Shown piece by piece: positions 1 through 58,314 of a stretch of DNA of 64,000 nucleotides. The stretch comes from Dudresnaya verticillata (Eukaryota), in NCBI GenBank assembly GCA_977862235.1, contig OZ374565.1, positions 2,604,001 to 2,668,000 of the forward strand, given 5' to 3'. The stretch's first letter is position 1. Every line of letters starts with the position of its first letter. Under the pieces are notes generated by a model. That model did no database searches. It was not told where the DNA came from and saw only the letters and a list, made by a program, of their open reading frames with translations. The position numbers and the translations under genes were made by a program.

Positions 1-3000
1 ACAAGCCTTGCCCCCGGTCCGGCAGCCTGGATGAAGCCACGATAAGTCCGCACCTTGTCAGCGTGGGCGTTCTTCAGCGTCCCTTGCGGGTTTGTTATGC
101 AGCTGAGAATGCGTTGTTCTGACGACAGTGGATGACTGATTGTGACGTCCAGGTAGTCCGTTCCTCCTTCTGTTCCAAGCGCCTTGATGTCCGGCCGATC
201 CAAGTGAGCCCCCACCGGGCGGGGCTCCACAATCGGGGTGCGTGTCGCACGTTTCAGATCCGAAGCCAGCAGACGAACCTGAGAGTCGTGGCGCCACGAC
301 CGAGGAGATCCGCTGTTCCGCATGCCGTTCGGACAAATCAGCAGATGGTCGCCGTGAACATCCATCATCTTCTTGCACCCGGCCCGAGGACACTCCGTGT
401 CGGGTTCCAGCAGTGGAATCCGACAGTAGAATCGAAGCCATACGCGGTAGTCCCGATCCGCAATGTACGTCTTCATGCCTGGTGCCGGCTGGCACTTGAG
501 CCAGTCCTTGGCGCCCGGCACGCCAAGGGAAGCTCGGAAAGCTTGCGTCCGCCTGTCCCCGAGCGGCAGCTCGGCTTGCACTTTCTTCAGAACCAACCGC
601 GTCAAGTCCCGCTGGCGCGGGCACTCGTCGCTGTCGATCTTCTCCAGGTCCAGGGCATCCTCACTATGGCACTTGGCGCTCCAGTCTTCGTGCGCTTCTA
701 CTGCAAAAGGATCGTCAGAAAGAGCAGTGTTCACAGAAGCGGGTAAGATAGAACGCAGTAAGTTGCGGGTCAGTGAAAGGGACGCCAAAAACGCGCTCGA
801 GTTCATGTCGCCAGCTCCCGAAATACCGATTCCGAAGCTGGGCTCTTTCGTGCGCAGGGGAAGCTGAAGTTCGCGGAAGGTGTCCCTCGGTAGGACTCCT
901 CCCACGAGCTTGCGCATGCAAGCCTCAATCTTCTGGTCGAAGAGCTCGGCGCCCTTCGCCGTGGCGGATGATGGAACTACTCGCAGCAGGTAGTTCAGCC
1001 GGCAGACTCCGGCACAGTTGCGGAGTAGAGTGATGGCCACGTGTAGGTCTTCTAGTCCCGAAATTGCGTCCAGCAGGGGCTGGATGGACTCGACATGGCC
1101 ATTCACGCTCTCCTCCATGTAGTTCTGCGTTCCAATCGGAGCCTGAAGTGCTGTAGTGCCTTCTCCGTAGCTCTGCCCAAGATCCGACGGGTAGGCAGCG
1201 CAGTCTTCTGGGTCGGGTGCAGTAGGCCACCAAACAGTACACTTGTCCATGCGCAGGTGGAAGCCATAGCCCTTAGCTTCCTCGGAGTCAAAGAAGGACA
1301 GAACCTTCCTGAGTACGGCGTGTTTCGCCACGATGACGCCGTCGTCCAGGTAGAACAGTGACAGCAGCAAGTTGTTCGCCCCCTCCGCTTGCTGATTGCG
1401 GCCCGAGCGCCGCAGGTCGGCGGTGAGTTCCTTCAACTGTTTGATCAGTGCCTGCAGCACCAAAGCAAACAGTAACGGCCCGAGCGGGTCACCTTGCTGT
1501 ACACCAGTGACACTCCGCAGTAGAGTGTCACCCATCCACAGGTGCGGGCCCTCAGAGTCATAACAGTATCTGACCCACGGTAGTAGTTCAGGCATATGTC
1601 GGCGGACCTCCTTCATGAATGCTTTGCGGCTGACAAGGTTGAAGGCATTCTTCAAGTCCACTTGTAGCAACCCGTAGGACTTGTCATGGCCGTGAGACTT
1701 CTGCAGCTTCCGGACCGCGTGTACAATGGCTTCTGTGCCGCCCGAGGTTGCGACCCCGAGCTGAAGCGGTTCGAGGTATGCCTTGGCCTTGGGAGCGACT
1801 CTGGTCATGAGCATAGAGCTCACGAGTCGTCGGATTGTCTCTCCTACAGCAATGGGGCGGACACCGCCGGTGCGCTTCTTCAGAGCCGTGAGAGGAGCGC
1901 TGGCAATCCAAGGCGACAGCTCCGCAGGTCCTGCGCCGCTGGCCAGCACGTTGACCATTTTGGTGAGCCCGCCAAGCAGGCCCGTGTGCTCGTGAGTGGT
2001 CGGGACTGAGAGCAGTTCCTGCAGATGCGTCGGTGATAGTCCTGTGCCCCCCGAGGCCGAAGCCCGGGGGAACTTGGCCACTGCTTTTCGTACTTCGTCG
2101 GCTGTGAAAGGCACAAAGTCAGGCATGGTCGGCAGCGGTTCGGACTGGTCAAGCTCGTGGTCCGCGTCGGTTTGCGGTACGGACTGTGGGTGCTTGTCCT
2201 TCATGGACTGTATCACAGAGTCTGTGGCTGGCGCGATTCCATCAGAGTCTAGAGCTGCTGCTGCCTTACTGTAGGCGCCCTCCTTTGCGAGGCGAAGGGC
2301 TCGTGAGGCGTTGATACGGCGTTGCTCTTCTGCGGAAGGCGCAGTCTGCTCACGGAATGTCGAGCCCTTCAAGGCCTCCTGCCATAGGGCGTCGTAATCC
2401 TTGAGTCCCCAGCGGCGGATTCGATCGCGGAAGGTGCCGATCGAGGACGCAGAGGTTGACGCGCCGGCCCTTGCACTCGCCGCGGGAGGATTGGACAAGA
2501 CGGCTGCTGGAAAAAGCAGGAATGCAGTGAGCTCTTTGGTGGCTTCCTGAGAGTTGTTTGCGTTCGTAAAAGCCCATACCGTCTTGGACAGTGCGTCGCG
2601 CACCTCTGCGCGCACGCGAGACGGTATATGTGTGACCATAGGGATATGCGAGCGACAGATATCTTCGACCGCCGGCAGAAGCTGCCCTCCTGGACCCCGC
2701 GCAGCGTGTCGGGTTTGCGCAGTTGGTACCACTTGAGTAGCTGGTACCGGTGCAGGAGGCGGCTCCTGGCTGTCCGGGATTCGTCGCGGGGCTGGCAGGA
2801 TATCGTCCGCCGGCTCGCCGTCCTCGGGTTGCGTCTCCGTGACCGCGTCCAGAGCAGGAGTCTGTGATGGCGCGGCTACAGTTTCTTCACGGCTCGGTGT
2901 CGTCAATTGGTTGGACGGGACGTGGGAGAACGCCGGAGTGCGAGTGGCGGGACATGCGCTGCAATTCTTGTACCGCATACTGTACATGCCTTCACTGTTC

Positions 3001-3293
3001 ATGCGGGAGCTACAGTGGGTAGGCATGTACTTGTTGTGAGTCACACAGTACCATACTCCATAGTCCAGGAGCTGCTGCTTGAGAGGCTCGATGTCGGTCC
3101 TCGTCGGTGGTCCTCGCCTGCCAGGAACATGCATCTTCCGCAGGTGCATGAGTAGCGCTTCTACAGTAGGCAGTGAGGACGACTGGCAGCCCAGAGGACA
3201 GCTGGTACTGTTTGTCGGGCGGTGTTTTGCCGAAGGCATAAAGCATGGAGAGAGCCATACCTTCGGCATGTCGGGGTGCTGCTGACCAATCAT
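1..3293 (-). CDS. Retrotransposon RT-endonuclease ORF, copy A (C-terminus runs off window start)
   Basis: ATG at 3293 (CAT at 3291-3293 on +); colinear with the 1162-aa ORF of copy B at offset 4658. Confidence 0.9.
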   Translation of the reverse strand, partial: MIGQQHPDMPKVWLSPCFMPSAKHRPTNSTSCPLGCQSSSLPTVEALLMHLRKMHVPGRRGPPTRTDIEPLKQQLLDYGVWYCVTHNKYMPTHCSSRMNSEGMYSMRYKNCSACPATRTPAFSHVPSNQLTTPSREETVAAPSQTPALDAVTETQPEDGEPADDILPAPRRIPDSQEPPPAPVPATQVVPTAQTRHAARGPGGQLLPAVEDICRSHIPMVTHIPSRVRAEVRDALSKTVWAFTNANNSQEATKELTAFLLFPAAVLSNPPAASARAGASTSASSIGTFRDRIRRWGLKDYDALWQEALKGSTFREQTAPSAEEQRRINASRALRLAKEGAYSKAAAALDSDGIAPATDSVIQSMKDKHPQSVPQTDADHELDQSEPLPTMPDFVPFTADEVRKAVAKFPRASASGGTGLSPTHLQELLSVPTTHEHTGLLGGLTKMVNVLASGAGPAELSPWIASAPLTALKKRTGGVRPIAVGETIRRLVSSMLMTRVAPKAKAYLEPLQLGVATSGGTEAIVHAVRKLQKSHGHDKSYGLLQVDLKNAFNLVSRKAFMKEVRRHMPELLPWVRYCYDSEGPHLWMGDTLLRSVTGVQQGDPLGPLLFALVLQALIKQLKELTADLRRSGRNQQAEGANNLLLSLFYLDDGVIVAKHAVLRKVLSFFDSEEAKGYGFHLRMDKCTVWWPTAPDPEDCAAYPSDLGQSYGEGTTALQAPIGTQNYMEESVNGHVESIQPLLDAISGLEDLHVAITLLRNCAGVCRLNYLLRVVPSSATAKGAELFDQKIEACMRKLVGGVLPRDTFRELQLPLRTKEPSFGIGISGAGDMNSSAFLASLSLTRNLLRSILPASVNTALSDDPFAVEAHEDWSAKCHSEDALDLEKIDSDECPRQRDLTRLVLKKVQAELPLGDRRTQAFRASLGVPGAKDWLKCQPAPGMKTYIADRDYRVWLRFYCRIPLLEPDTECPRAGCKKMMDVHGDHLLICPNGMRNSGSPRSWRHDSQVRLLASDLKRATRTPIVEPRPVGAHLDRPDIKALGTEGGTDYLDVTISHPLSSEQRILSCITNPQGTLKNAHADKVRTYRGFIQAAGPGARL

Positions 3294-4031
3294 GGTTACA
3301 GCGCTGGGTAAGGTACCTGTAAAGGTCCTCTACAGTAGGTTCCCTCGGGGCACAGACCTCCTAACCGGGACGCAAGCCTGTCGTCCGTCGTCAGTCTGTT
3401 CGGGACACCTCCAGAGGGTGCTACAGGTGGCCTTGCTGCGAGATGAAGGCCTCTTCGCAGCGTAGGGCGTGAGATTGCGCAATTTGCGCACGAGCTCGCG
3501 CAAAAGGGCGCACGTGTTAGCGTTCGCGCGTAGACTTATCGGACGTTCCCTTCCCTGCCGCAGCTGAGAAGAGTCTCTTCACTGCGGTCCTGTAACGCGC
3601 GGTACTTCTCGTTTGCACAAGCTCTCAATGGGGTCGCAGAACCACCGTTTACCTGTGAGTGCCCACAGGATTTTTGGCCTCCCCCGAAGGTTCGCTGGCA
3701 GGACGTTCGCTCGATCTTAGAAGGGGTGGTTTCAAAACAGGATCCACCAGGCTTAAGCCACGTTACCCCAACTTCGACGTTGCTTGGCACGTTTCTGCGA
3801 TGAGCTTGTGGGTCACGAGCCGCCTACCACTCAAGGTCGAGGGTCTTTGGCGATTCCCACACTTGTAGGTCTCTCGGCACTTCCCGAAGGAAGATTTTAC
3901 AGGACAAGCCTGGCCTTTACCAATCTGTCAGTTGAAGGGTGTGAAACCCCTCTGTCGACAGTCCACGGCAGCCTAGACAGAGTCTAGGCTGTGCCGGGTA
4001 CAAGCAAAACGCGTACAGGGCCAGGGAAAGA

Positions 4032-4077
4032 AAGATAAGTCAGTGGGGCCCGGGCAAATTTCAAGGTGAGGGATCAC
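4032..4077 (+). promoter_or_regulatory. 5S internal-control-region (box A / IE / box C) mimic in the element 5' UTR; also at 20738-20783, 29259-29304, 33943-33988, 39634-39679, 44293-44338, 48977-49022, 55960-56005, 63823-63868
   Basis: AAGATAAGTC (4032-4041) equals 5S +51..+60 and AGGTGAGGGATCAC (4064-4077) equals 5S +83..+96, with the same 32-bp offset as in the 5S gene (9117 to 9149). Regulatory function is inferred. Confidence 0.7.
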
Positions 4078-4360
4078 CTTAAAAGTAAGCGCAAAATAGG
4101 AAACGCGTGACCGTCGGCGACGACGGCGGCGGCGACGGCGGCGACGACGACGGCGTCGCGGCGCAGATCGACGGCGCAAAAAGAGACAAAAGTAGACCGC
4201 GCTCGCCCGCCGTCAAAGGTGAAGGGCTGAAAAACCCCGCACCGACGCGCCGTCGCGCGCTCGAACAGGCGGCACCGCCGCCGAAAAGATCGGTGCAGAA
4301 CTTGTTGAGATATCCGCGAAACAAAATTTTCGGCAGATCGCGAGGGGGTACTGAGGTGAG

Positions 4361-7300
4361 TTCAACTTTATAACAGGGGACCATATTCTAATATTTGTCG
4401 ACGTACAATCTACTGTAGTATCACAACAAAGTTAAACCCCCAACTCAAAACAACTTGCACATCTACACCTCCTGTTGGATCCCTTCCATCAGGCACTTGA
4501 CGTTGTTCTGTACCAGTCGCGCCGCGTGCCTGTGGAATAGAGCCGCTCGCGAAACACCGCGAGTTACCATGGCCCGAGAAGCCACGGTATCCGCCAACTC
4601 TTGCATATACTTGTGCGCCTCCGGGTGCCAGCCACCTAGTGTGGTCATCGGCACCGGCACAAGCCTTGCCCCCGGTCCGGCAGCCTGGATGAAGCCACGG
4701 TAAGTCCGCACCTTGTCAGCGTGGGCGTTCTTCAGCGTCCCTTGCGGGTTTGTTATGCAGCTGAGAATGCGTTGTTCTGACGACAGTGGATGACTTATTG
4801 TGACGTCCAGGTAGTCCGTTCCTCCTTCTGTTCCAAGCGCCTTGATGTCTGGCCGATCCAGGTGAGCCCCCACCGGGCGGGGCTCCACAATCGGGGTGCG
4901 TGTCGCACGTTTCAGATCCGAAGCCAGCAGACGAACCTGAGAGTCGTGGCGCCACGACCGAGGAGAACCGCTGTTCCGCATGCCGTTCGGACAAATCAGC
5001 AGATGGTCGCCGTGAACATCCATCTTCTTCTTGCACCCGGCCCGAGGACACTCCGTGTCGGGTTCCAGCAGTGGGATCTGACAGTAGAATCGAAGCCATA
5101 CGCGGTAGTCCCGATCCGCAATGTACGTCTTCATGCCTGGTGCCGGCTGGCACTTGAGCCAGTCCTTGGCGCCCGGCACGCCAAGGGAAGCTCGGAAAGC
5201 TTGAGTCCGCCTGTCCCCGAGCGGCAGCTCGGCTTGCACTTTCTTCAGTACCAACCGCGTCAAGTCCCGCTGGCGCGGGCACTCGTCGCTGTCGATCTTC
5301 TCCAGGTCCAGGGCATCCTCACTATGGCACTTGGCGCTCCAGGCTTCGTGCGCTTCTACTGCAAAAGGATCGTCAGAAAGAGCAGTGTTCACAGAAGCGG
5401 GTAAGATAGAACGCAGTAAGTTGCGGGTCAGTGAAAGGGATGCCAAAAACGCGCTCGAGTTCATGTCTCCAGCTCCCGAAATACCGATTCCGAAGCTGGG
5501 CTCTTTCGTGCGCAGGGGAAGCTGAAGTTCGCGGAAGGTGTCCCTCGGTAGGACTCCTCCCACGAGCTTGCGCGTGCAAGCCTCAATCTTCTGGTCGAAG
5601 AGCTCGGCGCCCTTTGCCGTGGCGGATGATGGAACTACTCGCAGCAGGTAGTTCAGCCGGCAGACTCCGGCACAGTTGCGGAGTAGAGTGATGGCCACGT
5701 GTAGGTCTTCTAGTCCCGAAATTGCGTCCAGCAGGGGCTGGATGGACTCGACATGGCCATTCACGCTCTCCTCCATGTAGTTCTGCGTTCCAATCGGAGC
5801 CTGAAGTACTGTAGTGCCTTCTCCGTAGCTCTGCCCAAGATCCGACGGGTAGGCAGCGCAGTCTTCTGGGTCGGGTGCAGTAGGCCACCAAACAGTACAC
5901 TTGTCCATGCGCAGGTGGAAGCCATAGCCCTTAGCTTCCTCGGAGTCAAAGAAGGACAGAACCTTCCTGAGTACGGCGTGTTTCGCCACGATGACGCCGT
6001 CGTCCAGGTAGAACAGTGACAGCAGCAAGTTGTTCGCCCCCTCCGCTTGCTGATTGCGGCCCGAGCGCCGCAGGTCGGCGGTGAGTTCCTTCAACTGTTT
6101 GATCAGTGCCTGCAGCACCAAAGCAAACAGTAACGGCCCGAGCGGGTCACCTTGCTGTACACCAGTGACACTCCGCAGTAGAGTGTCACCCATCCACAGG
6201 TGCGGGCCCTCAGAGTCATAACAGTATCTGACCCACGGTAGTAGTTCAGGCATATGTCGGCGGACCTCCTTCATGAATGCTTTGCGGCTGACAAGGTTGA
6301 AGGCATTCTTCAAGTCCACTTGTAGCAACCCGTAGGACTTGTCATGGCCGTGAGACTTCTGCAGCTTCCGGACCGCGTGTACAATGGCTTCTGTGCCGCC
6401 CGAGGTTGCGACCCCGAGCTGAAGCGGTTCGAGGTATGCCTTGGCCTTGGGAGCGACTCTGGTCATGAGCATAGAGCTCACGAGTCGTCGGATTGTCTCT
6501 CCTACAGCAATGGGGCGGACACCGCCGGTGCGCTTCTTCAGAGCCGTGAGAGGAGCGCTGGCAATCCAAGGCGACAGCTCCGCAGGTCCTGCGCCGCTGG
6601 CCAGCACGTTGACCATTTTGGTGAGCCCGCCAAGCAGGCCCGTGTGCTCGTGAGTGGTCGGGACTGAGAGCAGTTCCTGCAGATGCGTCGGTGATAGTCC
6701 TGTTCCCCCCGAGGCCGAAGCCCGGGGGAACTTGGCCACTGCTTTTCGTACTTCGTCGGCTGTGAAAGGCACAAAGTCAGGCATGGTCGGCAGCGGTTCG
6801 GACTGGTCAAGCTCGTGGTCCGCGTCGGTTTGCGGTACGGACTGCGGGTGCTTGTCCTTCATGGACTGTATCACAGAGTCTGTGGCTGGGGCGATTCCAT
6901 CAGAGTCTAGAGCTGCTGCTGCCTTACTGTAGGCGCCCTCCTTTGCAAGGCGAAGGGCTCGTGAGGCATTGATACGGCGTTGCTCTTCTGCGGAAGGCGC
7001 AGTCTGCTCACGGAATGTCGAGCCCTTCAAGGCCTCCTGCCATAGGGCGTCGTAATCCTTGAGTCCCCAGCGTCGGATTCGATCGCGGAAGGTGCCGATC
7101 GAGGACGCAGAGGTTGACGCGCTGGCCCTTGCACTCGCCGCGGGAGGATTGGACAAGACGGCTGCTGGAAAAAGCAGGAATGCAGTGAGCTCTTTGGTGG
7201 CTTCCTGAGAGTTGGTTGCGTTCGTAAAAGCCCATACCGTCTTGGACAGTGCGTCGCGCACCTCGGCGCGGACGCGAGACGGTATATGTGTGACCATAGG

Positions 7301-8001
7301 GATATGCGAGCGACAGATGTCTTCGACCGCCGGCAGAAGCTGCCCTCCTGGACCCCGCGCAACGGGTGGGGTTTGCGCAGTTGGTACCTCTCGAGTAGCA
7401 GGTACCGGTGCAGGAGGCGGCTCCTGGCTGTCCGGGATTCGTCGCGGGGCTGGCAGGATATCGTCCGCTGGCTCGCCGTCCTCGGGTTGCGTCTCCGTGA
7501 CCGCGTCCAGAGCAGGAGTCTGTGATGGCGCGGCTACAGTTTCTTCACGGCTCGGTGTCGTCAATTGGTTGGACGGGACGTGGGAGAACGCCGGAGTGCG
7601 AGTAGCGGGACATGCGCTGCAATTCTTGTACCGCATACTGTACATGCCTTCACTGTTCATGCGGGAGCTACAGTGGGTAGGCATGTACTTGTTGTGAGTC
7701 ACACAGTACCATACTCCATAGTCCAGGAGCTGCTGCTTGAGAGGCTCGATGTCGGTCCTCGTCGGTGGTCCTCGCCTGCCAGGAACATGCATCTTCCGCA
7801 GGTGCATGAGTAGCGCTTCTACAGTAGGCAGTGAGGACGACTGGCAGCCCAGAGGACAGCTGGTACTGTTTGTCGGGCGGTGTTTTGCCGAAGGCATAAA
7901 GCATGGAGAGAGCCATACCTTCGGCATGTCGGGGTGCTGCTGACCAATCATGGTTACAGCGCTGGGTAAGGTACCTGTAAAGGTCCTCTACAGTAGGTTC
8001 C
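4361..8001 (-). mobile_element. Copy B; intact ORF, ~1 kb of 5' UTR missing, fused to the 5S spacer
   Basis: Starts TTCAACTTTATAAC after GTGAG; ends at TTCC (7998-8001), a 4-bp microhomology with the spacer. Confidence 0.95.
4463..7951 (-). CDS. 1162-aa non-LTR retrotransposon protein: C2H2 Zn finger, reverse transcriptase, CCHC knuckle, restriction-like endonuclease (CRE-clade-like)
   Basis: CPLGC-x13-H-x4-H; RPIAVGE; QLGV..GGTEAIVH; VDLKNAFN; GVQQGDPLGPLLF; YLDD; C-x4-C-x9-H-x3-C; RHD; RPDI..DVT..K. Confidence 0.96.
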   Translation of the reverse strand: MIGQQHPDMPKVWLSPCFMPSAKHRPTNSTSCPLGCQSSSLPTVEALLMHLRKMHVPGRRGPPTRTDIEPLKQQLLDYGVWYCVTHNKYMPTHCSSRMNSEGMYSMRYKNCSACPATRTPAFSHVPSNQLTTPSREETVAAPSQTPALDAVTETQPEDGEPADDILPAPRRIPDSQEPPPAPVPATREVPTAQTPPVARGPGGQLLPAVEDICRSHIPMVTHIPSRVRAEVRDALSKTVWAFTNATNSQEATKELTAFLLFPAAVLSNPPAASARASASTSASSIGTFRDRIRRWGLKDYDALWQEALKGSTFREQTAPSAEEQRRINASRALRLAKEGAYSKAAAALDSDGIAPATDSVIQSMKDKHPQSVPQTDADHELDQSEPLPTMPDFVPFTADEVRKAVAKFPRASASGGTGLSPTHLQELLSVPTTHEHTGLLGGLTKMVNVLASGAGPAELSPWIASAPLTALKKRTGGVRPIAVGETIRRLVSSMLMTRVAPKAKAYLEPLQLGVATSGGTEAIVHAVRKLQKSHGHDKSYGLLQVDLKNAFNLVSRKAFMKEVRRHMPELLPWVRYCYDSEGPHLWMGDTLLRSVTGVQQGDPLGPLLFALVLQALIKQLKELTADLRRSGRNQQAEGANNLLLSLFYLDDGVIVAKHAVLRKVLSFFDSEEAKGYGFHLRMDKCTVWWPTAPDPEDCAAYPSDLGQSYGEGTTVLQAPIGTQNYMEESVNGHVESIQPLLDAISGLEDLHVAITLLRNCAGVCRLNYLLRVVPSSATAKGAELFDQKIEACTRKLVGGVLPRDTFRELQLPLRTKEPSFGIGISGAGDMNSSAFLASLSLTRNLLRSILPASVNTALSDDPFAVEAHEAWSAKCHSEDALDLEKIDSDECPRQRDLTRLVLKKVQAELPLGDRRTQAFRASLGVPGAKDWLKCQPAPGMKTYIADRDYRVWLRFYCQIPLLEPDTECPRAGCKKKMDVHGDHLLICPNGMRNSGSPRSWRHDSQVRLLASDLKRATRTPIVEPRPVGAHLDRPDIKALGTEGGTDYLDVTISHPLSSEQRILSCITNPQGTLKNAHADKVRTYRGFIQAAGPGARLVPVPMTTLGGWHPEAHKYMQELADTVASRAMVTRGVSRAALFHRHAARLVQNNVKCLMEGIQQEV

Positions 8002-9035
8002 TTCCTCCCCGCCGCCCTCTGCGTACATTGCTGCCTTGCATACCTCTCCCACAGAATCCCCGACCCACTGCCTCTGTACAGCGTATTCTTTTCACTCGCA
8101 CTTTTCCCCTTTTCTTGTAAGTGGGAGGGAGTCTGAGAGTGTTTGCAGGTGTCTAGGGGTTGTTTAGGGTTAGGTCTAGGGTTAGTTTGGTTACTGTGGT
8201 ACGCGAGGGGCATGATATTGGGAGGGTAAAGGGTCTAGTGTTGGTGCATGGAATGAATCATGGTGGTGGAAGGAATGGATCAGTGTGGTGGATGAATTGG
8301 ATTTAGGGACATAGAATTGGATTAGATTTAGTACCCAGAAGATTGGATCAAGGATCACCACAATCGGATCAAGTCTGGTGGCTGGGGTGAGGGTGGCTTG
8401 GACGTTTGTGCTCATAACTTTGGAACGGCTGGGGCTAGGGAGCTGCTCAGTAGCTGAATCGAAGCGTCTCGTTGCTGCGCATTGCGTAGCGCTCTTACCC
8501 TCCTAAATCGACTTTTTGGCGCGTTTCTATGGTGCAAAACGTCCCCACGGGCCGTCGGCAGCTTTTGAGCAGATCAAATAGGGGTTTGGGGCATGTATGG
8601 TTATGGGTGGGTTTAGGGGTGTTAGGGATGTGTCATTTTAACGCGTTTAGGAGTGTAGGGAGTGGGAATGAAAGTAGTAAGGATGAGGAAATGGAAAGGG
8701 AAGGATGAGAAAGTATAGTACAATGCAGTAATACAAATCACGGAATGCATCAGGTTGGGATCCAATAAGGGTGGATGGATTGGATCAACGGAAGTCAAGG
8801 CGTTATAGGATTGGATCTAGGGGCTCTGTAAATTAGATTGGGTGCTGGTTTCATTGAACCAAGGGGTCAGAACGTCCATGAGCTGGTTGACTGTATTTAT
8901 ATTGAATCCTGCGTTTAGAGTAAATGGTATACGGTTATGGGTCATTACTTTAATGCTCCACGTGTACACTACAGTCGGATGGACATTGGACGCAGGAGTC
9001 TTTAGTCGATGACGGGGAGTGCAGTTGATGGCGCA

Positions 9036-9043
9036 TTTAAATA
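9036..9043 (+). promoter_or_regulatory. TATA-like element at -31..-24 of the 5S gene (present in every unit)
   Basis: TTTAAATA about 30 bp upstream of 5S +1, the typical position for Pol III 5S upstream elements. Confidence 0.6.
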
Positions 9044-9066
9044 GGGGTACGGCGGGAACAGCAAGC

Positions 9067-9186
9067 ACATTCGGCCATACTACGCAGACATGCTCCGTAT
9101 CCCATCCCGAACTGCGAAGATAAGTCTCGTCAGGCTGGTTTAGTACTGAGGTGAGGGATCACTCTGGAATCGCCAGTGCCGAATGT
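9067..9186 (+). rRNA. 5S rRNA: 5S rRNA (intact)
   Basis: 120 nt; terminal helix ACATTCGGC/GCCGAATGT; CCCATCCCGAAC loop C; TTAGTACT loop E; GTGA-GGGA-TCAC hairpin; followed by a T-run. Confidence 0.97.
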
Positions 9187-9198
9187 TTTTATTTTTTT
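9186..9198 (+). terminator. RNA Pol III terminator TTTTTATTTTTTT (after every 5S 3' end)
   Basis: Oligo-T tract immediately after the 5S gene. Confidence 0.9.
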
Positions 9199-10275
9199 GC
9201 ACCTCATTCCTTCCTCCCCGCCGCCCTCTGCGTACATTGCTGCCTTGCATACCTCTCCCACAGAATCCCCGACCCACTGCCTCTGTACAGCGTATTCTTT
9301 TCACTCGCACTTTTCCCCTTTTCTTGTAAGTGGGAGGGAGTCTGAGAGTGTTTGCAGGTGTCTAGGGGTTGTTTAGGGTTAGGTCTAGGGTTAGTTTGGT
9401 TACTGTGGTACGCGAGGGGCATGATATTGGGAGGGTAAAGGGTCTAGTGTTGGTGCATGGAATGAATCATGGTGGTGGAAGGAATGGATCAGTGTGGTGG
9501 ATGAATTGGATTTAGGGACATAGAATTGGATTAGATTTAGTACCCAGAAGATTGGATCAAGGATCACCACAATCGGATCAAGTCTGGTGGCTGGGGTGAG
9601 GGTGGCTTGGACGTTTGTGCTCATAACTTTGGAACGGCTGGGGCTAGGGAGCTGCTCAGTAGCTGAATCGAAGCGTCTCGTTGCTGCGCATTGCGTAGCG
9701 CTCTTACCCTCCTAAATCGACTTTTTGGCGCGTTTCTATGGTGCAAAACGTCCCCACGGGCCGTCGGCAGCTTTTGAGCAGATCAAATAGGGGTTTGGGG
9801 CATGTATGGTTATGGGTGGGTTTAGGGGTGTTAGGGATGTGTCATTTTAACGCGTTTAGGAGTGTAGGGAGTGGGAATGAAAGTAGTAAGGATGAGGAAA
9901 TGGAAAGGGAAGGATGAGAAAGTATAGTACAATGCAGTAATACAAATCACGGAATGCATCAGGTTGGGATCCAATAAGGGTGGATGGATTGGATCAACGG
10001 AAGTCAAGGCGTTATAGGATTGGATCTAGGGGCTCTGTAAATTAGATTGGGTGCTGGTTTCATTGAACCAAGGGGTCAGAACGTCCATGAGCTGGTTGAC
10101 TGTATTTATATTGAATCCTGCGTTTAGAGTAAATGGTATACGGTTATGGGTCATTACTTTAATGCTCCACGTGTACACTACAGTCGGATGGACATTGGAC
10201 GCAGGAGTCTTTAGTCGATGACGGGGAGTGCAGTTGATGGCGCATTTAAATAGGGGTACGGCGGGAACAGCAAGC

Positions 10276-16320: not shown

Positions 16321-16409
16321 ACATTCGGCCATACTACGCAGACATGCTCCGTATCCCATCCCGAACTGCGAAGATAAGTCTCGTCAGGCTGGTTTAGTAC
16401 TGAGGTGAG
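16321..16409 (+). pseudogene. 5S rRNA 5' part (+1..+89), interrupted by copies C and D
   Basis: 5S sequence stops at ...CTGAGGTGAG and element sequence TTCAAC begins. Confidence 0.95.
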
Positions 16410-19400
16410 TTCAACTTTATAACAGGTGATCATATTCTAATATTTGTCGACGTACAATCTACTGTAGTATCACAACAAAGTTAAACCCCAACTCAAAACA
16501 ACTTGCACATCTACACCTCCTGTTGGATCCCTTCCATCAGGCACTTGACGTTGTTCTGCACCAGTCGCGCCGCGTGCCTGTGGAATAGAGCCGCTCGCGA
16601 AACACCGCGAGTTACCATGGCCCGAGAAGCCACAGTATCCGCCAACTCTTGCATGTACTTGTGCGCCTCCGGGTGCCAGCCACCTAGTGTGGTCATCGGC
16701 ACCGGCACAAGTCTTGCCCCCGGTCCGGCAGCCTGGATGAAGCCACGGTAAGTCCGCACCTTGTCAGCGTGGGCGTTCTTCAGCGTCCCTTGCGGGTTTG
16801 TTATGCAGCTGAGAATGCGTTGTTCTGACGACAGTGGATGACTGATTGTGACGTCCAGGTAGTCCGTTCCTCCTTCTGTTCCAAGCGCCTTGATGTCCGG
16901 CCGATCCAGGTGAGCCCCCACAGGGCGGGGCTCCACAATCGGGGTGCGTGTCGCACGTTTCAGATCCGAAGCCAGCAGACGAACCTGAGAGTCGTGGCGC
17001 CACGACCGAGGAGATCCGCTGTTCCGCATGCCGTTCGGACAAATCAGCAGATGGTCGCCGTGAACATCCATCATCTTCTTGCACCCGGCCCGAGGACACT
17101 CCGTGTCGGGTTCCAGCAGTGGAATCCGACAGTAGAATCGAAGCCATACGCGGTAGTCCCGATCCGCAATGTACGTCTTCATGCCTGGTGCCGGCTGGCA
17201 CTTGAGCCAGTCCTTGGCGCCCGGCGCGCCAAGGGAAGCTCGGAAAGCTTGCGTCCGCCTGTCCCCGAGCGGCAGCTCGGCTTGCACTTTCTTCAGTACC
17301 AACCGCGTCAAGTCCCTCTGGCGTGGGCACTCGTCGCTGTCGATCTTCTCCAGGTCCAGGGCATCCTCACTATGGCACTTGGCGCTCCAGTCTTCGTGCG
17401 CTTCTACTGCAAAAGGATCGTCAGAAAGAGCAGTGTTCACAGAAGCGGGTAAGATAGAACGCAGTAAGTTGCGGGTCAGTGAAAGGGACGCCAAAAACGC
17501 GCTCGAGTTCATGTCGCCAGCTCCCGAAATACCGATACCGAAGCTGGGCTCTTTCGTGCGCAGGGGAAGCTGAAGTTCGCGGAAGGTGTCCCTCGGTAGG
17601 ACTCCTCCCACGAGCTTGCGCATGCAAGCCTCAATCTTCTGGTCGAAGAGCTCGGCGCCCTTCGCCGTGGCGGATGATGGAACTACTCGCAGCAGGTAGT
17701 TCAGCCGGCAGACTCCGGCACAGTTGCGGAGTAGAGTGATGGCCACGTGTAGGTCTTCTAGTCCCGAAATTGCGTCCAGCAGGGGCTGGATGGACTCGAC
17801 ATGGCCATTCACGCTCTCCTCCATGTAGTTCTGCGTTCCAATCGGAGCCTGAAGTACTGTAGTGCCTTCTCCGTAGCTCTGCCCAAGATCCGATGGGTAG
17901 GCAGCGCAGTCTTCTGGGTCGGGTGCAGTAGGCCACCAAACAGTACACTTGTCCATGCGCAGGTGGAAGCCATAGCCCTTAGCTTCCTCGGAGTCAAAGA
18001 AGGACAGAACCTTCCTGAGTACGGCGTGTTTCGCCACGATGACGCCGTCGTCCAGGTAGAACAGTGACAGCAGCAAGTTGTTCGCCCCCTCCGCTTGCTG
18101 ATTGCGGCCCGAGCGCCGCAGGTCGGCGGTGAGTTCCTTCAACTGTTTGATCAGTGCCTGCAGCACCAAAGCAAACAGTAACGGCCCGAGCGGGTCACCT
18201 TGCTGTACACCAGTGACACTCCGCAGTAGAGTGTCACCCATCCACAGGTGCGGGCCCTCAGAGTCATAACAGAATCTGACCCACGGTAGTAGTTCAGGCA
18301 TATGTCGGCGGACCTCCTTCATGAATGCTTTGCGGCTGACAAGGTTGAAGGCATTCTTCAAGTCCACTTGTAGCAACCCGTAGGACTTGTCATGGCCGTG
18401 AGACTTCTGCAGCTTCCGGACCGCGTGTACAATCGCTTCTGTGCCGCCCGAGGTTGCGACCCCGAGCTGAAGCGGTTCGAGGTATGCCTTGGCCTTGGGA
18501 GCGACTCTGGTCATGAGCATAGAGCTCACGAGTCGTCGGATTGTCTCTCCTACAGCAATGGGGCGGACACCGCCGGTGCGCTTCTTCAGAGCCGTGAGAG
18601 GAGCGCTGGCAATCCAAGGCGACAGCTCCGCAGGTCCTGCGCCGCTGGCCAGCACGTTGACCATTTTGGTGAGCCCGCCAAGCAGGCCCGTGTGCTCGTG
18701 AGTGGTCGGGACTGAGAGCAGTTCCTGCAGATGCGTCGGTGATAGTCCTGTGCCCCCCGAGGCCGAAGCCCGGGGGAACTTGGCAACTGCTTTTCGTACT
18801 TCGTCGGCTGTGAAAGGCACGAAGTCAGGCATGGTCGGCAGCGGTTCGGACTGGTCAAGCTCGTGGTCCGCGTCGGTTTGCGGTACGGACTGTGGGTGCT
18901 TGTCCTTCATGGACTGTATCACAGAGTCTGTGGCTGGCGCGATTCCATCAGAGTCTAGAGCTGCTGCTGCCTTACTGTAGGCGCCCTCCTTTGCGAGGCG
19001 AAGGGCTCGTGAGGCATTGATACGGCGTTGCTCTTCTGCGGAAGGCGCAGTCTGCTCACGGAATGTCGAGCCCTTCAAGGCCTCCTGCCATAGGGCGTCG
19101 TAATCCTTGAGTCCCCAGCGGCGGATTCGATCGCGGAAGGTGCCGATCGAGGACGCAGAGGTTGACGCGCCGGCCCTTGCACTCGCTGCGGGAGGATTGG
19201 ACAAGACGGCTGCTGGAAAAAGCAGGAATGCAGTGAGCTCTTTGGTGGCTTCCTGAGAGTTGTTTGCGTTCGTAAAAGCCCATACCGTCTTGGACAGTGC
19301 GTCGCGCACCTCTGCGCGGACGCGAGACGGTATATGTGTGACCATAGGGATATGCGAGCGACAGATATCTTCGACCGCCGGCAGAAGCTGCCCTCCTGGA

Positions 19401-21052
19401 CCCCGCGCAGCGTGTCGGGTTTGCGCAGTTGGTACCACTTGAGTAGCTGGTACCGGTGCAGGAGGCGGCTCCTGGCTGTCCGGGATTCGTCGCGGGGCTG
19501 GCAGGATATCGTCCGCCGGCTCGCCGTCCTCGGGTTGCGTCTCCGTGACCGCGTCCAGAGCAGGAGTCTGTGATGGCGCGGCTACAGTTTCTTCACGGCT
19601 CGGTGTCGTCAATTGGTTGGACGGGACGTGGGAGAACGCCGGAGTGCGAGTGGCGGGACATGCGCTGCAATTCTTGTACCGCATACTGTACATGCCTTCA
19701 CTGTTCATGCGGGAGCTACAGTGGGTAGGCATGTACTTGTTGTGAGTCACACAGTACCATACTCCATAGTCCAGGAGCTGCTGCTTGAGAGGCTCGATGT
19801 CGGTCCTCGTCGGTGGTCCTCGCCTGCCAGGAACATGCATCTTCCGCAGGTGCATGAGTAGCGCTTCTACAGTAGGCAGTGAGGACGACTGGCAGCCCAG
19901 AGGACAGCTGGTACTGTTTGTCGGGCGGTGTTTTGCCGAAGGCATAAAGCATGGAGAGAGCCATACCTTCGGCATGTCGGGGTGCTGCTGACCAATCATG
20001 GTTACAGCGCTGGGTAAGGTACCTGTAAAGGTCCTCTACAGTAGGTTCCCTCGGGGCACAGACCTCCTAACCGGGACGCAAGCCTGTCGTCCGTCGTCAG
20101 TCTGTTCGGGACACCTCCAGAGGGTGCTACAGGTGGCCTTGCTGCGAGATGAAGGCCTCTTCGCAGCGTAGGGCGTGAGATTGCGCAATTTGCGCACGAG
20201 CTCGCGCAAAAGGGCGCACGTGTTAGCGTTCGCGCGTAGACTTATCGGACGTTCCCTTCCCTGCCGCAGCTGAGAAGAGTCTCTTCACTGCGGTCCTGTA
20301 ACGCGCGGTACTTCTCGTTTGCACAAGCTCTCAATGGGGTCGCAGAACCACCGTTTACCTGTGAGTGCCCACAGGATTTTTGGCCTCCCCCGAAGGTTCG
20401 CTGGCAGGACGTTCGCTCGATCTTAGAAGGGGTGGTTTCAAAACAGGATCCACCAGGCTTAAGCCACGTTACCCCAACTTCGACGTTGCTTGGCACGTTT
20501 CTGCGATGAGCTTGTGGGTCACGAGCCGCCTACCACTCAAGGTCGAGGGTCTTTGGCGATTCCCACACTTGTAGGTCTCTCGGCACTTCCCGAAGGAAGA
20601 TTTTACAGGACAAGCCTGGCCTTTACCAATCTGTCAGTTGAAGGGTGTGAAACCCCTCTGTCGACAGTCCACGGCAGCCTAGACAGAGTCTAGGCTGTGC
20701 CGGGTACAAGCAAAACGCGTACAGGGCCAGGGAAAGAAAGATAAGTCAGTGGGGCCCGGGCAAATTTCAAGGTGAGGGATCACCTTAAAAGTAAGCGCAA
20801 AATAGGAAACGCGTGACCGTCGGCGACGACGGCGGCGGCGACGGCGGCGACGACGACGGCGTCGCGGCGCAGATCGACGGCGCAAAAAGAGACAAAAGTA
20901 GACCGCGCTCGCCCGCCGTCAAAGGTGAAGGGCTGAAAAACCCCGCACCGACGCGCCGTCGCGCGCTCGAACAGGCGGCACCGCCGCCGAAAAGATCGGT
21001 GCAGAACTTGTTGAGATATCCGCGAAACAAAATTTTCGGCAGATCGCGAGGG
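16410..21052 (-). mobile_element. Copy C, full length (4643 bp)
   Basis: Flanked by the 14-bp duplication AGTACTGAGGTGAG (16396-16409 and 21053-21066). Confidence 0.97.
16511..19999 (-). CDS. 1162-aa RT/RLE protein, copy C (variant subfamily)
   Basis: Intact ORF with all motifs. Confidence 0.96.
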   Translation of the reverse strand: MIGQQHPDMPKVWLSPCFMPSAKHRPTNSTSCPLGCQSSSLPTVEALLMHLRKMHVPGRRGPPTRTDIEPLKQQLLDYGVWYCVTHNKYMPTHCSSRMNSEGMYSMRYKNCSACPATRTPAFSHVPSNQLTTPSREETVAAPSQTPALDAVTETQPEDGEPADDILPAPRRIPDSQEPPPAPVPATQVVPTAQTRHAARGPGGQLLPAVEDICRSHIPMVTHIPSRVRAEVRDALSKTVWAFTNANNSQEATKELTAFLLFPAAVLSNPPAASARAGASTSASSIGTFRDRIRRWGLKDYDALWQEALKGSTFREQTAPSAEEQRRINASRALRLAKEGAYSKAAAALDSDGIAPATDSVIQSMKDKHPQSVPQTDADHELDQSEPLPTMPDFVPFTADEVRKAVAKFPRASASGGTGLSPTHLQELLSVPTTHEHTGLLGGLTKMVNVLASGAGPAELSPWIASAPLTALKKRTGGVRPIAVGETIRRLVSSMLMTRVAPKAKAYLEPLQLGVATSGGTEAIVHAVRKLQKSHGHDKSYGLLQVDLKNAFNLVSRKAFMKEVRRHMPELLPWVRFCYDSEGPHLWMGDTLLRSVTGVQQGDPLGPLLFALVLQALIKQLKELTADLRRSGRNQQAEGANNLLLSLFYLDDGVIVAKHAVLRKVLSFFDSEEAKGYGFHLRMDKCTVWWPTAPDPEDCAAYPSDLGQSYGEGTTVLQAPIGTQNYMEESVNGHVESIQPLLDAISGLEDLHVAITLLRNCAGVCRLNYLLRVVPSSATAKGAELFDQKIEACMRKLVGGVLPRDTFRELQLPLRTKEPSFGIGISGAGDMNSSAFLASLSLTRNLLRSILPASVNTALSDDPFAVEAHEDWSAKCHSEDALDLEKIDSDECPRQRDLTRLVLKKVQAELPLGDRRTQAFRASLGAPGAKDWLKCQPAPGMKTYIADRDYRVWLRFYCRIPLLEPDTECPRAGCKKMMDVHGDHLLICPNGMRNSGSPRSWRHDSQVRLLASDLKRATRTPIVEPRPVGAHLDRPDIKALGTEGGTDYLDVTISHPLSSEQRILSCITNPQGTLKNAHADKVRTYRGFIQAAGPGARLVPVPMTTLGGWHPEAHKYMQELADTVASRAMVTRGVSRAALFHRHAARLVQNNVKCLMEGIQQEV

Positions 21053-21066
21053 AGTACTGAGGTGAG

Positions 21067-22497
21067 TTCAACTTTATAACAGGTGATCATATTCTAATAT
21101 TTGTCGACGTACAATCTACTGTAGTATCACAACAAAGTTAAACCCCAACTCAAAACAACTTGCACATCTACACCTCCTGTTGGATCCCTTCCATCAGGCA
21201 CTTGACGTTGTTCTGCACCAGTCGCGCCGCGTGCCTGTGGAATAGAGCCGCTCGCGAAACACCGCGAGTTACCATGGCCCGAGAAGCCACAGTATCCGCC
21301 AACTCTTGCATGTACTTGTGCGCCTCCGGGTGCCAGCCACCTAGTGTGGTCATCGGCACCGGCACAAGTCTTGCCCCCGGTCCGGCAGCCTGGATGAAGC
21401 CACGGTAAGTCCTCACCTTGTCAGCGTGGGCGTTCTTCAGCGTCCCTTGCGGGTTTGTTATGCAGCTGAGAATGCGTTGTTCTGACGACAGTGGGTGACT
21501 GATTGTGACGTCCAGGTAGTCCGTTCCTCCTTCTGTTCCAAGCGCCTTGATGTCCGGCCGATCCAGGTGAGCCCCCACAGGGCGGGGCTCCACAATCGGG
21601 GTGCGTGTCGCACGTTTCAGATCCGAAGCCAGCAGACGAACCTGAGAGTCGTGGCGCCACGACCGAGGAGATCCGCTGTTCCGCATGCCGTTCGGACAAA
21701 TCAGCAGATGGTCGCCGTGAACATCCATCATCTTCTTGCACCCGGCCCGAGGACACTCCGTGTCGGGTTCCAGCAGTGGAATCCGACAGTAGAATCGAAG
21801 CCATACGCGGTAGTCCCGATCCGCAATGTACGTCTTCATGCCTGGTGCCGGCTGGCACTTGAGCCAGTCCTTGGCGCCCGGCGCGCCAAGGGAAGCTCGG
21901 AAAGCTTGCGTCCGCCTGTCCCCGAGCGGCAGCTCGGCTTGCACTTTCTTCAGTACCAACCGCGTCAAGTCGCTCTGGCGTGGGCACTCGTCGCTGTCGA
22001 TCTTCTCCAGGTCCAGAGCATCCTCACTATGGCACTTGGCGCTCCAGTCTTCGTGCGCTTCTACTGCAAAAGGATCGTCAGAAAGAGCAGTGTTCACAGA
22101 AGCGGGTAAGATAGAACGCAGTAAGTTGCGGGTCAGTGAAAGGGACGCCAAAAACGCGCTCGAGTTCATGTCGCCAGCTCCCGAAATACCGATTCCGAAG
22201 CTGGGCTCTTTCGTGCGCAGGGGAAGCTGAAGTTCGCGGAAGGTGTCCCTCGGTAGGACTCCCCCCACGAGCTTGCGCATGCAAGCCTCAATCTTCTGGT
22301 CGAAGAGCTCGGCGCCCTTCGCCGTGGCGGATGATGGAACTACTCGCAGCAGGTAGTTCAGCCGGCAGACTCCGGCACAGTTGCGGAGTAGAGTGATGGC
22401 CACGTGTAGGTCTTCTAGTCCCGAAATTGCGTCCAGCAGGGGCTGGATGGACTCGACATGGCCATTCACGCTCTCCTCCATGTAGTTCTGCGTTCCA
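21067..22497 (-). mobile_element. Copy D, 5'-truncated (~1.43 kb; C-terminal and endonuclease part only)
   Basis: Element sequence stops at CGTTCCA, then the TSD and the 3' part of 5S follow. Confidence 0.95.
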
Positions 22498-27900: not shown

Positions 27901-29582
27901 CAGAAGCTGCCCTCCTGGACCCCGCGCAACGGGTGGGGTTTGCGCAGTTGGTACCTCTCGAGTAGCAGGTACCGGTGCAGGAGGCGGCTCCTGGCTGTCC
28001 GGGATTCGTCGCGGGGCTGGCAGGATATCGTCCGCTGGCTCGCCGTCCTCGGGTTGCGTCTCCGTGACCGCGTCCAGAGCAGGAGACTGTGATGGCGCGG
28101 CTACAGTTTCTTCACGGCTCGGTGTCGTCAATTGGTTGGACGGGACGTGGGAGAACGCCGGAGTGCGAGTAGCGGGACATGCGCTGCAATTCTTGTACCG
28201 CATACTGTACATGCCTTCACTGTTCATGCGGGAGCTACAGTGGGTGGGCATGTACTTGTTGTGAGTCACACAGTACCATACTCCATAGTCCAGGAGCTGC
28301 TGCTTGAGAGGCTCGATGTCGGTCCTCGTCGGTGGTCCTCGCCTGCCAGGAACATGCATCTTCCGCAGGTGCATGAGTAGCGCTTCTACAGTAGGCAGTG
28401 AGGACGACTGGCAGCCCAGAGGACAGCTGGTACTGTTTGTCGGGCGGTGTTTTGCCGAAGGCATAAAGCATGGAGAGAGCCATACCTTCGGCATGTCGGG
28501 GTGCTGCTGACCAATCATGGTTACAGCGCTGGGTAAGGTACCTGTAAAGGTCCTCTACAGTAGGTTCCCACGGGGCACAGACCTCCTAACCGGGACGCAA
28601 GCCTGTCGTCCGTCGTCAGTCTGTTCGGGACACCTCCAGAGGGTGCTACAGGTGGCCTTGCTGCGAGATGAGGGCCTCTTCGCAGCGTAGGGCGCGAGAT
28701 CGCGCACTTTGCGCACGAGCTCGCGCAAAAGGGCGCGCGTGTTAGCGTTCGTGCGCGCAGAGTTATCGGACGTTCCCTTCCCTGCCGCAGCTGAGAAGAC
28801 TCTCTTCACTGCGGTCCTGTAACGCGCGGTACTTCTCGTTTGCACAAGCTCTCAATGGGGTCGCAGAACCACCGTTTACCTGTGAGTGCCCACAGGATTT
28901 TTGGCCTCCCCCGAAGGTTCGCTGGCAGGACGTTCGCTCGATCTTAGAAGGGGTGGTTTCAAAACAGGATCCACCAGGCTTAAGCCACGTTACCCCAACT
29001 TCGACGTTGCTTGGCACGTTTCTGCGATGAGCTTGTGGGTCACGAGCCGCCTACCACTCAAGGTCGAGGGTCTTTGGCGATTCCCACACTTGTAGGTCTC
29101 TCGGCACTTCCCGAAGGAAGATTTTACAGGACAAGCCTGGCCTTTACCAATCTGTCAGTTGAAGGGTGTGAAACCCCTCTGTCGACAGTCCACGGCAGCC
29201 TAGACAGAGTCTAGGCTGTGCCGGGTACAAGCAAAACGCGTACAGGGCCAGGGAAAGAAAGATAAGTCAGTGGGGCCCGGGCAAATTTCAAGGTGAGGGA
29301 TCACCTTAAAAGTAAGCGCAAAATAGGAAACGCGTGACCGTCGGCGACGACGGCGGCGGCGACGGCGGCGACGACGACGGCGTCGCGGCGCAGATCGGCG
29401 GCGCGGAAAGAGACAAAAGTAGACCGCGCTCGCCCGCCCGCGAAGGTGAAGGGCTGAAAAACCCCGCACCGACGCGCCGTCGCGCGCTCGAACAGGCGGC
29501 ACCGCCGCCGAAAAGATCGGTGCAGAACTTGCTGAGAAATCTCCGAAACAAAAAATTCGGCAGATCGCGAGGGGTTCTCCGG
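24929..29582 (-). mobile_element. Copy E, full length with the longest 5' end
   Basis: Ends ...AGATCGCGAGGGGTTCTCCGG, then a complex target-derived junction (29583-29612). Confidence 0.96.
25030..28518 (-). CDS. 1162-aa RT/RLE protein, copy E
   Basis: Intact ORF. Confidence 0.96.
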   Translation of the reverse strand: MIGQQHPDMPKVWLSPCFMPSAKHRPTNSTSCPLGCQSSSLPTVEALLMHLRKMHVPGRRGPPTRTDIEPLKQQLLDYGVWYCVTHNKYMPTHCSSRMNSEGMYSMRYKNCSACPATRTPAFSHVPSNQLTTPSREETVAAPSQSPALDAVTETQPEDGEPADDILPAPRRIPDSQEPPPAPVPATREVPTAQTPPVARGPGGQLLPAVEDICRSHIPMVTHIPSRVRAEVRDALSKTVWAFTNATNSQEATKELTAFLLFPAAVLSNPPAASARASASTSASSIGTFRDRIRRWGLKDYDALWQEALKGSTFREQTAPSAEEQRRINASRALRLAKEGAYSKAAAALDSDGIAPATDSVIQSMKDKHPQSVPQTDADHELDQSEPLPTMPDFVPFTADEVRKAVAKFPRASASGGTGLSPTHLQELLSVPTTHEHTGLLGGLTKMVNVLASGAGPAELSPWIASAPLTALKKRTGGVRPIAVGETIRRLVSSMLMTRVAPKAKAYLEPLQLGVATSGGTEAIVHAVRKLQKSHGHDKSYGLLQVDLKNAFNLVSRKAFMKEVRRHMPELLPWVRYCYDSEGPHLWMGDTLLRSVTGVQQGDPLGPLLFALVLQALIKQLKELTADLRRSGRNQQAEGANNLLLSLFYLDDGVIVAKHAVLRKVLSFFDSEEAKGYGFHLRMDKCTVWWPTAPDPEDCAAYPSDLGQSYGEGTTVLQAPIGTQNYMEESVNGHVESIQPLLDAISGLEDLHVAITLLRNCAGVCRLNYLLRVVPSSATAKGAELFDQKIEACMRKLVGGVLPRDTFRELQLPLRTKEPSFGIGISGAGDMNSSAFLASLSLTRNLLRSILPASVNTALSDDPFAVEAHEDWSAKCHSEDALDLEKIDSDECPRQRDLTRLVLKKVQAELPLGDRRTQAFRASLGVPGAKDWLKCQPAPGMKTYIADRDYRVWLRFYCRIPLLEPDTECPRAGCKKMMDVHGDHLLICPNGMRNSGSPRSWRHDSQVRLLASDLKRATRTPIVEPRPVGAHLDRPDIKALGTEGGTDYLDVTISHPLSSEQRILSCITNPQGTLKNAHADKVRTYRGFIQAAGPGARLVPVPMTTLGGWHPEAHKYMQELADTVASRAMVTRGVSRAALFHRHAARLVQNNVKCLMEGIQQEV

Positions 29583-35284: not shown

Positions 35285-35303
35285 TCGTCAGTACTGAGGT
35301 GAG

Positions 35304-51618: not shown

Positions 51619-51630
51619 CGCTGAGGTGAG

Positions 51631-58256: not shown

Positions 58257-58270
58257 GTACTGAGGTGAGT

Positions 58271-58314
58271 GTACTGAGGTGAGGGATCACTCTGGAATCG
58301 CCAGTGCCGAATGT
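58271..58314 (+). pseudogene. 5S rRNA 3' part (+77..+120)
   Basis: GTACTGAGGTGAGGGATCAC...GCCGAATGT. Confidence 0.95.

Follow-up and report, generated by a model that had tools for sequence, protein, structure and literature searches.

The 5S rRNA gene array of Dudresnaya verticillata is invaded by an R2-like LINE whose 5' untranslated leader carries a two-block copy of the host 5S gene, including the very site at which the element inserts itself. The two blocks keep the spacing that they have in 5S, the sequence between them has diverged to the level of chance, and the flanks of the second block are rebuilt into what is predicted to be a hairpin of the element-sense RNA. We tentatively favour the reading that the integration machinery of the element uses this motif at the RNA level, as a copy or complement of the element's target.

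The window, that is, the whole analysed stretch of 64,000 nucleotides from contig OZ374565.1, is occupied throughout by a 5S rDNA array with a repeat unit of 1209 bp. Rfam reports eleven 5S matches, all of them on the plus strand; seven are intact (91.9 bits) and 100% identical to each other, and four are interrupted. The interrupted genes end at +89 and restart at +76 or +77. The 4643-bp LINE is present in 14 copies, all on the minus strand, each sitting behind 5S +89 and accompanied by a target duplication of 13-14 bp (5S 76/77-89). Its 3' junctions are precise in all 13 visible cases, always behind a sequence ending in GAGGTGAG, and its 5' junctions are variable. From these junction positions, the first-strand nick on the plus strand separates G89 from G90, and the second nick lies 13-14 nt upstream of it. 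The cut site in 5S thus reads AGGTGAG^GGATCAC, and the first-strand nick, behind +89, maps to loop D (G89-A92) of the Rfam 5S structure.

The leader is kept in nine of the 14 copies, the other five being 5'-truncated (at element positions 3643, 1431, 1016, 2323 and 759). A single open reading frame of 1162 amino acids, located at 16511-19999 in the reference copy, is complete in eight copies, cut by the window edge in one more and broken in one full-length copy. The eight complete reading frames indicate that the family has been active recently. Comparison of nine copies yields 84 variable columns over the element, about 3.6 per 200 bp, and two subfamilies: the copies with the motif at 4032 and 20738 on one side, the other seven on the other.

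Sequence and predicted structure both characterize the encoded protein as R2-like. The reading frame contains the Pfam domain RVT_1 (E 4.5e-16) and matches R2 reverse transcriptases in the PDB by sequence (E 7e-8). A full-length AlphaFold model, built from an alignment of 14 rows, has a mean pLDDT of 80.2 and a pTM of 0.76; in Foldseek this predicted structure matches R2Tg (9nl3_A) and R2Bm (8gh6_A) with E of about 6e-23 over about 1030 columns, and both rank ahead of LINE-1 ORF2p. Searching the last 283 amino acids against PDB and Pfam by sequence gave no match for the C-terminal endonuclease; CCHC and nuclease-like motifs were spotted by eye only. The sole named homologues found are SLACS-like proteins of Diplonema, at about 26% identity. 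With R2 the element shares a single ORF, a putative RLE-type organization, a predicted fold that matches R2 proteins over its whole length, site-specific insertion into rRNA genes, variable 5' junctions and 5' truncations. It differs in its target, which is 5S and not 28S. Since it lies antisense to its target gene, it would not be co-transcribed with 5S, unlike R2; also unlike R2, no HDV-like ribozyme was matched by Rfam in the window.

Table 1. Positions of the motif, of the element parts around it and of the reference sequences (window coordinates)
Feature	Position	Strand	Remarks
Block 1, AAGATAAGTC	4032..4041	+	identical to host 5S +51..+60 (box A core)
Spacer, 22 bp	4042..4063	+	native length; without AGTACTG
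Block 2, AGGTGAGGGATCAC	4064..4077	+	identical to host 5S +83..+96 (box C core)
Palindrome, 26 nt (11-nt arms, 4-nt loop)	4059..4084	-	homologous to 5S +78..+103 (helix IV / loop D arm)
Further identical motif copy	29259..29304	+	string match
5' UTR of copy 1	3294..4347	-	from ORF start (3293) to 5' end beside duplicated target
Invariant part of 5' UTR, 597 bp	3574..4170 (copy 1) = 20280-20876 (copy 3)	-	no variable site in nine copies
5S piece (+77..+89), 13 bp	4348..4360	+	separates copy 1 from next tandem copy
Reference full-length copy (copy 3), 4643 bp	16410..21052	-	motif at 20738-20783
Reference intact host 5S rRNA gene	9067..9187	+	+1 = 9067; Rfam

The motif comprises 46 bp (Table 1). 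An earlier sequence-only reading had described it as a correctly spaced mimic of the 5S internal promoter that spans the element's own cut site, and comparison of the sequence with the host 5S gene confirms its position, its content and its spacing: in the reference gene the equivalents of the two blocks lie at 9117-9126 and 9149-9162, and the offset between blocks is 32 bp in the element as in 5S. That block 2 straddles the cut site follows from the interruptions of 5S and from the junctions; the block is centred, seven nucleotides on either side, on the position equivalent to the first-strand nick. Identical 46-bp strings start at 4032, 20738, 29259, 33943, 39634, 44293, 48977, 55960 and 63823, so that the motif is present, as had been noted, in all nine leader-keeping copies and in both subfamilies. 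It lies 263-315 nt from the 5' end of the element RNA, with the 46-bp string at nt 270-315. As it runs in 5S orientation, it is antisense in that RNA. The spacer holds a palindrome, GCCCGGGC. Its lack of AGTACTG, the duplicated target part that carries the second-strand nick, had likewise been seen correctly, and so had the absence of insertions: the motif is interrupted in none of the nine copies, none of the 13 visible 3' junctions occurs in the motif's own context, and all 13 are found in a 5S or duplicated-target context.

The motif is a non-chance two-block copy of host 5S, as judged from sequence comparison. When 300 dinucleotide shuffles of the element were compared with 5S, a shared 14-mer was encountered once, a longest match of at least 10 was found in 161 shuffles, and two words of at least 8 on one diagonal in three. 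In the real element the two blocks are the only words of at least 8 shared with 5S in 5S orientation. A rough estimate for a 14-mer together with a collinear 10-mer arising by chance is 10^-6 to 10^-7. The rest of the 5S unit has no other similarity to the element, and the 5S covariance model (RF00001) gives no match at the motif at E up to 10.

Outside the blocks the resemblance to 5S is lost. Against 5S positions 61-77 the spacer has five identities, four transitions and eight transversions, which is the chance level; the six spacer positions earlier singled out as retained are thus not meaningful. Selective retention of the blocks themselves holds, with 24 of 24 positions identical to 5S in the blocks and 12 of the 17 spacer positions changed at random. 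This contrast excludes neutral decay of a captured 5S piece and speaks for selection on the blocks or on their structure. The presence of the motif in nine copies and both subfamilies, which had also been taken as a sign of function, is weak evidence because the surrounding 597 bp are equally invariant. The stretches on either side of this invariant part have 11 and 12 subfamily differences. The invariant part itself equals the reverse transcriptase core in conservation and is the most invariant part of the element outside that core. It looks either constrained or recently homogenized as a whole, and the motif does not stand out from the rest of it. No leader reading frame that could lie behind the invariance was evident, since there are only short stop-to-stop frames, none with an evident family match.

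Block 2 forms the centre of a palindrome which, compared with the homologous arm of 5S, has 18 identical positions, seven transitions and one transversion. Its element-sense RNA is predicted to fold into an 11-bp hairpin with ten Watson-Crick pairs and one G.U pair, and the nick position falls in the hairpin loop, behind the first loop base. Over the same 11 stem positions the sense strand of 5S has six Watson-Crick pairs, three G.U pairs and two mismatches, and the antisense strand of 5S has six Watson-Crick pairs, one G.U pair and four mismatches. Antisense 5S thus pairs at 7 of the 11 positions, and the element-sense stem of the motif at all 11. The plus strand of the motif also has ten Watson-Crick pairs, interrupted by one C.A mismatch, so that only seven contiguous pairs form there; the pair at positions 81/100 is in favour of the minus strand. 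The flank changes therefore have a direction, leading from an imperfect rRNA helix to a perfect stem that is best on the element-sense RNA.

On the minus strand the hairpin appears in both the MFE and the centroid folds of 76-, 453- and 597-nt contexts, and in the predicted element-sense fold the complement of block 1 occupies a hairpin loop. The local folding z-score is -3.5 for the minus strand and -1.1 for the plus strand. Random flanks would give seven of seven outer pairs with p of about (6/16)^7 = 1e-3, a post hoc estimate. Stems of at least 11 pairs occur somewhere in 66 of 200 element shuffles, and the hairpin is notable only through its coincidence with block 2. It is among the two best short-loop inverted repeats of the element, which are neighbours within the invariant leader block. 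To judge from its sequence, the strand-asymmetric hairpin favours a role at the RNA level, close to what the sequence-only reading had listed as an RNA segment complementary to the nicked strand or to 5S rRNA and as a binding site for the element's own Zn fingers, over the chromatin and Pol III promoter roles listed beside it.

A mechanism can be outlined along the lines of R2Bm. According to the available part of the study (Deng et al., bioRxiv 10.1101/2023.04.07.536001), R2Bm reads a target in which a 12-bp spacer separates an 18-bp recognition region from a 12-bp cleavage region; the sequence of this spacer is free, but its length is critical. The same source reports that the 5' RNA of R2Bm uses a protein interface common with the cleavage-region DNA and enables second-strand cleavage (10.1101/2023.04.07.536001). 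By analogy with what is proposed for that 5' RNA, the protein of the present element would bind the leader hairpin instead of the cleavage region of its target DNA, and this binding would release the DNA for second-strand cleavage. Alternatively, the hairpin might nucleate pairing with 5S, its loop UCCC facing the GGGA of loop D and block 1 being offered in a loop. In both cases a link between the 5' region of the RNA and the target would be established, either at the targeting step or late in target-primed reverse transcription. The layout of the motif, two blocks with a fixed spacer, resembles the target of R2Bm as described in the part of the study cited (10.1101/2023.04.07.536001), with the difference that block 1 and the R2Bm recognition region flank the nick on different sides. 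A further difference is that the 5' RNA of R2 is not a copy of target sequence, whereas the leader of this element has 24 nt identical to its target.

The hairpin-building changes, the strand asymmetry, the nick-centred block 2 and the missing upstream AT-rich block all favour such a single-strand, element-sense role. Several observations weigh on the other side. Retention of block 1 at exact spacing is not accounted for by an RNA hairpin alone and would better fit a protein that binds double-stranded DNA, and the coincidence of the blocks with box A and box C is predicted by TFIIIA binding, not by an RNA-level copy of the target. Seen from the nick, block 1 is on the primer (3' junction) side, contrary to what the R2Bm recognition region would suggest. 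The five 5'-truncated copies have normal target duplications although they lack the motif, which is therefore not essential for second-strand cleavage. As the nine copies are identical over 597 bp and none of 80 relatives lies in 5S, covariation gives the hairpin no support. Both leader strands fold better than shuffles, and the leader of one related element (L002, described below) shows no clear copy of its own flank; both facts count against an RNA-level role. A more specific version, that the leader RNA serves as a bipartite antisense guide to the element's own target, appears unlikely to us. Here the hairpin, mirroring helix IV and loop D of 5S, would form a kissing contact with loop D in nascent 5S RNA or with the displaced top strand, and a second segment of 10 nt, held in a loop, would pair with +51..+60. 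If this were true, RNA would take part in guiding a eukaryotic R2-like retrotransposon to its target or in holding the cut site.

Apart from an RNA-level copy of the target, the explanation that has most to recommend it, a serious rival though a somewhat less probable one, is a DNA site for the host 5S machinery, in which TFIIIA, and via it TFIIIC/TFIIIB, would bind the two blocks as box A and box C. The consequence could be open chromatin of the 5S type over the leader, or Pol III transcription starting at about 3982, antisense to the element. The yeast 5S gene reportedly has a 14-bp internal control region. Limits of the boxes in Xenopus are given in the accessible part of the source as +50..64 for the A box, +67..72 for the intermediate element and +80..97 for the C box, and both blocks lie inside the A and C boxes (PMC1950542). 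The earlier assignment of the blocks to box A and box C agrees with these limits; it does not extend to whole boxes, because only 10 of 15 positions of the A box (the differences from host 5S being +50 and +61..64), 4 of 6 of the intermediate element and 14 of 18 of the C box are kept, and the intermediate-element identities are near the chance level (about 0.04, with equal base use). Native spacing combined with a diverged spacer is reminiscent of Cassandra 5S promoters, in which, according to the part of the study available, the boxes are kept, inter-box motifs vary and indels are avoided (10.1101/2023.07.14.548913). Of the eight copies examined, six have no T4 run downstream on the plus strand and two have one, at +295 from block 1; the opposite strand has seven to eight such runs. 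Against binding by TFIIIA, directional changes at +79..82 and +97..101 create a hairpin that a double-strand site would have no use for, and the pair at positions 81/100 favours the minus strand. In real 5S genes an AT-rich, TATA-like block precedes the gene by about 30 bp (9037-9044), and there is a T5AT7 terminator; the matching place of the motif, 3952-3959, is GC-rich and has no counterpart of the upstream block. An antisense Pol III transcript across the start of the element would more plausibly be harmful than helpful, and the failure of the 5S covariance model to recognize the motif points in the same direction.

The same blocks could be a DNA site for the element's own protein within the donor copy, acting as a decoy, an autoregulatory site or a nicking site; it would be recognized like the target, but insertion could not be completed, the second-strand part AGTACTG being missing. 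The two-block layout with a fixed spacer like that of the R2Bm target, the nick-centred block 2, a spacer without the duplicated target part and the lack of insertions in all nine motifs would suit this explanation. We know of no LINE that regulates itself in this way, the element's own template strand would risk being nicked, and neither the hairpin-building substitutions nor the strand asymmetry would be explained. Reading of +51..+60 by the protein is unsupported; nine of 13 visible 3' junctions are preceded by another copy and not by an intact left half of 5S (+1..+75). On balance we regard such a site as very improbable. Hardly more credit is due to the motif being a functionless relic, a captured 5S fragment whose middle was replaced once and which is carried along in a leader conserved for another reason, for example as a promoter. 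The motif is indeed no better conserved among copies than the surrounding 597 bp, and one related element (L002) has no such motif. Yet it is unlikely that precisely the part with the second-strand site should have been replaced at unchanged length, or that eight further flank substitutions should have perfected a stem without selection, and neutral decay is excluded by the retention of 24 of 24 block positions against 5 of 17 in the spacer.

Several possible origins of the leader sequences were rejected. No similarity was found between the first 270 nt of the leader and the 3' flank or spacer of 5S. The motif is not a fossil 5' junction, as it contains +51..+60, which comes from the other side of the insertion, and a template switch onto 5S rRNA would have given the wrong orientation. 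One-step quasi-palindrome correction is an unlikely source of the stem, both arms of which differ from 5S.

Other mobile elements are linked to 5S. Cassandra and Ajax TRIMs and SINE3-type 5S SINEs likewise carry 5S boxes at kept spacing, and in the review tables available all mobile elements with 5S promoter boxes are non-autonomous (PMC10946416). In Cassandra, Ajax and SINE3 the 5S-like region is continuous, has about 70 bp or more, lies in sense orientation and drives their own transcription, whereas the present element is autonomous, with its own reverse transcriptase, and carries two short antisense blocks whose flanks are rebuilt into a hairpin. The endonuclease of Mutsu, a LINE of zebrafish, is AP-like. 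Like our element, Mutsu is an autonomous LINE with a fixed site inside 5S rRNA genes, but it has two ORFs and target sites in the 5' half of 5S, and the accessible part of its description contains no report of a target copy in its leader (PMC5340908). The present element has one ORF, an R2-like predicted fold and a cut at +89. CRE/SLACS-type LINEs of spliced-leader genes are also single-ORF, RLE-type and specific for a small-RNA gene; they have another target and low similarity (about 26%), and the likeness to them is drawn from sequence matches.

The comparative set comprised 80 metagenomic loci that encode relatives. Rfam found no 5S gene in any of the 80 and a single tRNA, and comparison of the window's 5S with these loci by nhmmer and short-word blastn returned chance words only. 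In a search for direct repeats, nine of the 80 loci had a flank of sufficient length, and a usable junction was obtained in one, L002. This relative, with 41% protein identity, is a decayed copy adjoining a tRNA-Arg(ACG) gene (3829-3906, 8602-8790). L002 is flanked by an 11-nt direct repeat, and about 0.7 repeats of this length per locus would arise by chance. The repeat overlaps with the 5' end of the tRNA gene, which is on the opposite strand, and is followed by about 170 nt with 73% identity to the first 172 nt of the element. L002 possibly represents a sister family associated with tRNA genes, likewise antisense and tandem. A search of its leader for a copy of its own flank gave nothing beyond chance 8-mers; since the copy is decayed and has 41% identity, this is weak evidence against a family-wide trait. 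In some relatives (L003, 6283-7506; P0004) a Ulp1-type protease domain (Peptidase_C48) is situated ahead of the reverse transcriptase. Elsewhere, two public sequencing runs have small shares of the window (X1 0.07, X2 0.05), neither of them over the motif region. X1 contains a related 5S gene which, compared with 16356-16409 of the window, has several differences after +89, and also low-depth pieces near-identical to the reverse transcriptase region (18145-18664). By these sequence matches, a close relative of both host and element may be present in public data.

Neither an RLE-type LINE in 5S genes nor a LINE leader holding a copy of its own cut site is reported in the openly accessible papers that we searched; within the same scope, Mutsu is the only 5S-specific LINE encountered. 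If the motif binds TFIIIA, the element would be the first autonomous LINE known with 5S promoter boxes. R2-type elements are being engineered for site-specific gene insertion, and the control of target recognition and second-strand cleavage by RNA is an open mechanistic question in them. A bipartite copy of the target in the leader, with a predicted hairpin around the nick position, amounts to a natural experiment, in which the same 24 nucleotides could be examined as DNA target, RNA ligand and pairing partner.

Many copies of the element are arranged in tandem. Head-to-tail copies are found at 24929-56274, 1-8004 and 16410-22496, with only 10-20 nt of 5S (+76/77/80..+89) between them. The junctions E5/E6 are identical to E9/E10, including an extra 27 bp, and the 5' junctions of E8 and E12 are identical as well; such identities indicate that the array has grown by block duplication, besides new insertions or serial template jumps. 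The tandem junctions allow no deduction as to which side of the target the protein needs, because they fit re-insertion by an older copy, serial template jumps and unequal crossover equally well.

Individual junctions have peculiarities of their own. At 51613-51630 and 35285-35303 the 5' junctions of truncated copies hold CAGATCG before the duplicated 5S piece; these are a few bases of the extreme 5' end of the neighbouring full-length copy, which fits either a duplication extending into the neighbour or a copied read-through RNA tail. Behind the 759-bp truncated copy (58256-58283) the target duplication is present twice, separated by a single T that equals the first base of the element's 3' end, and this arrangement looks like an aborted second insertion. 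The copy truncated at 3643 (junction at 7998-8004) keeps the whole ORF and has lost almost all of its leader; the 5S unit resumes beside it at position 141, with 5S +90..+140 deleted. In the spacer of the 5S unit, short runs resembling telomere-type TTAGGG repeats are located at 9375-9400 and 9790-9850.
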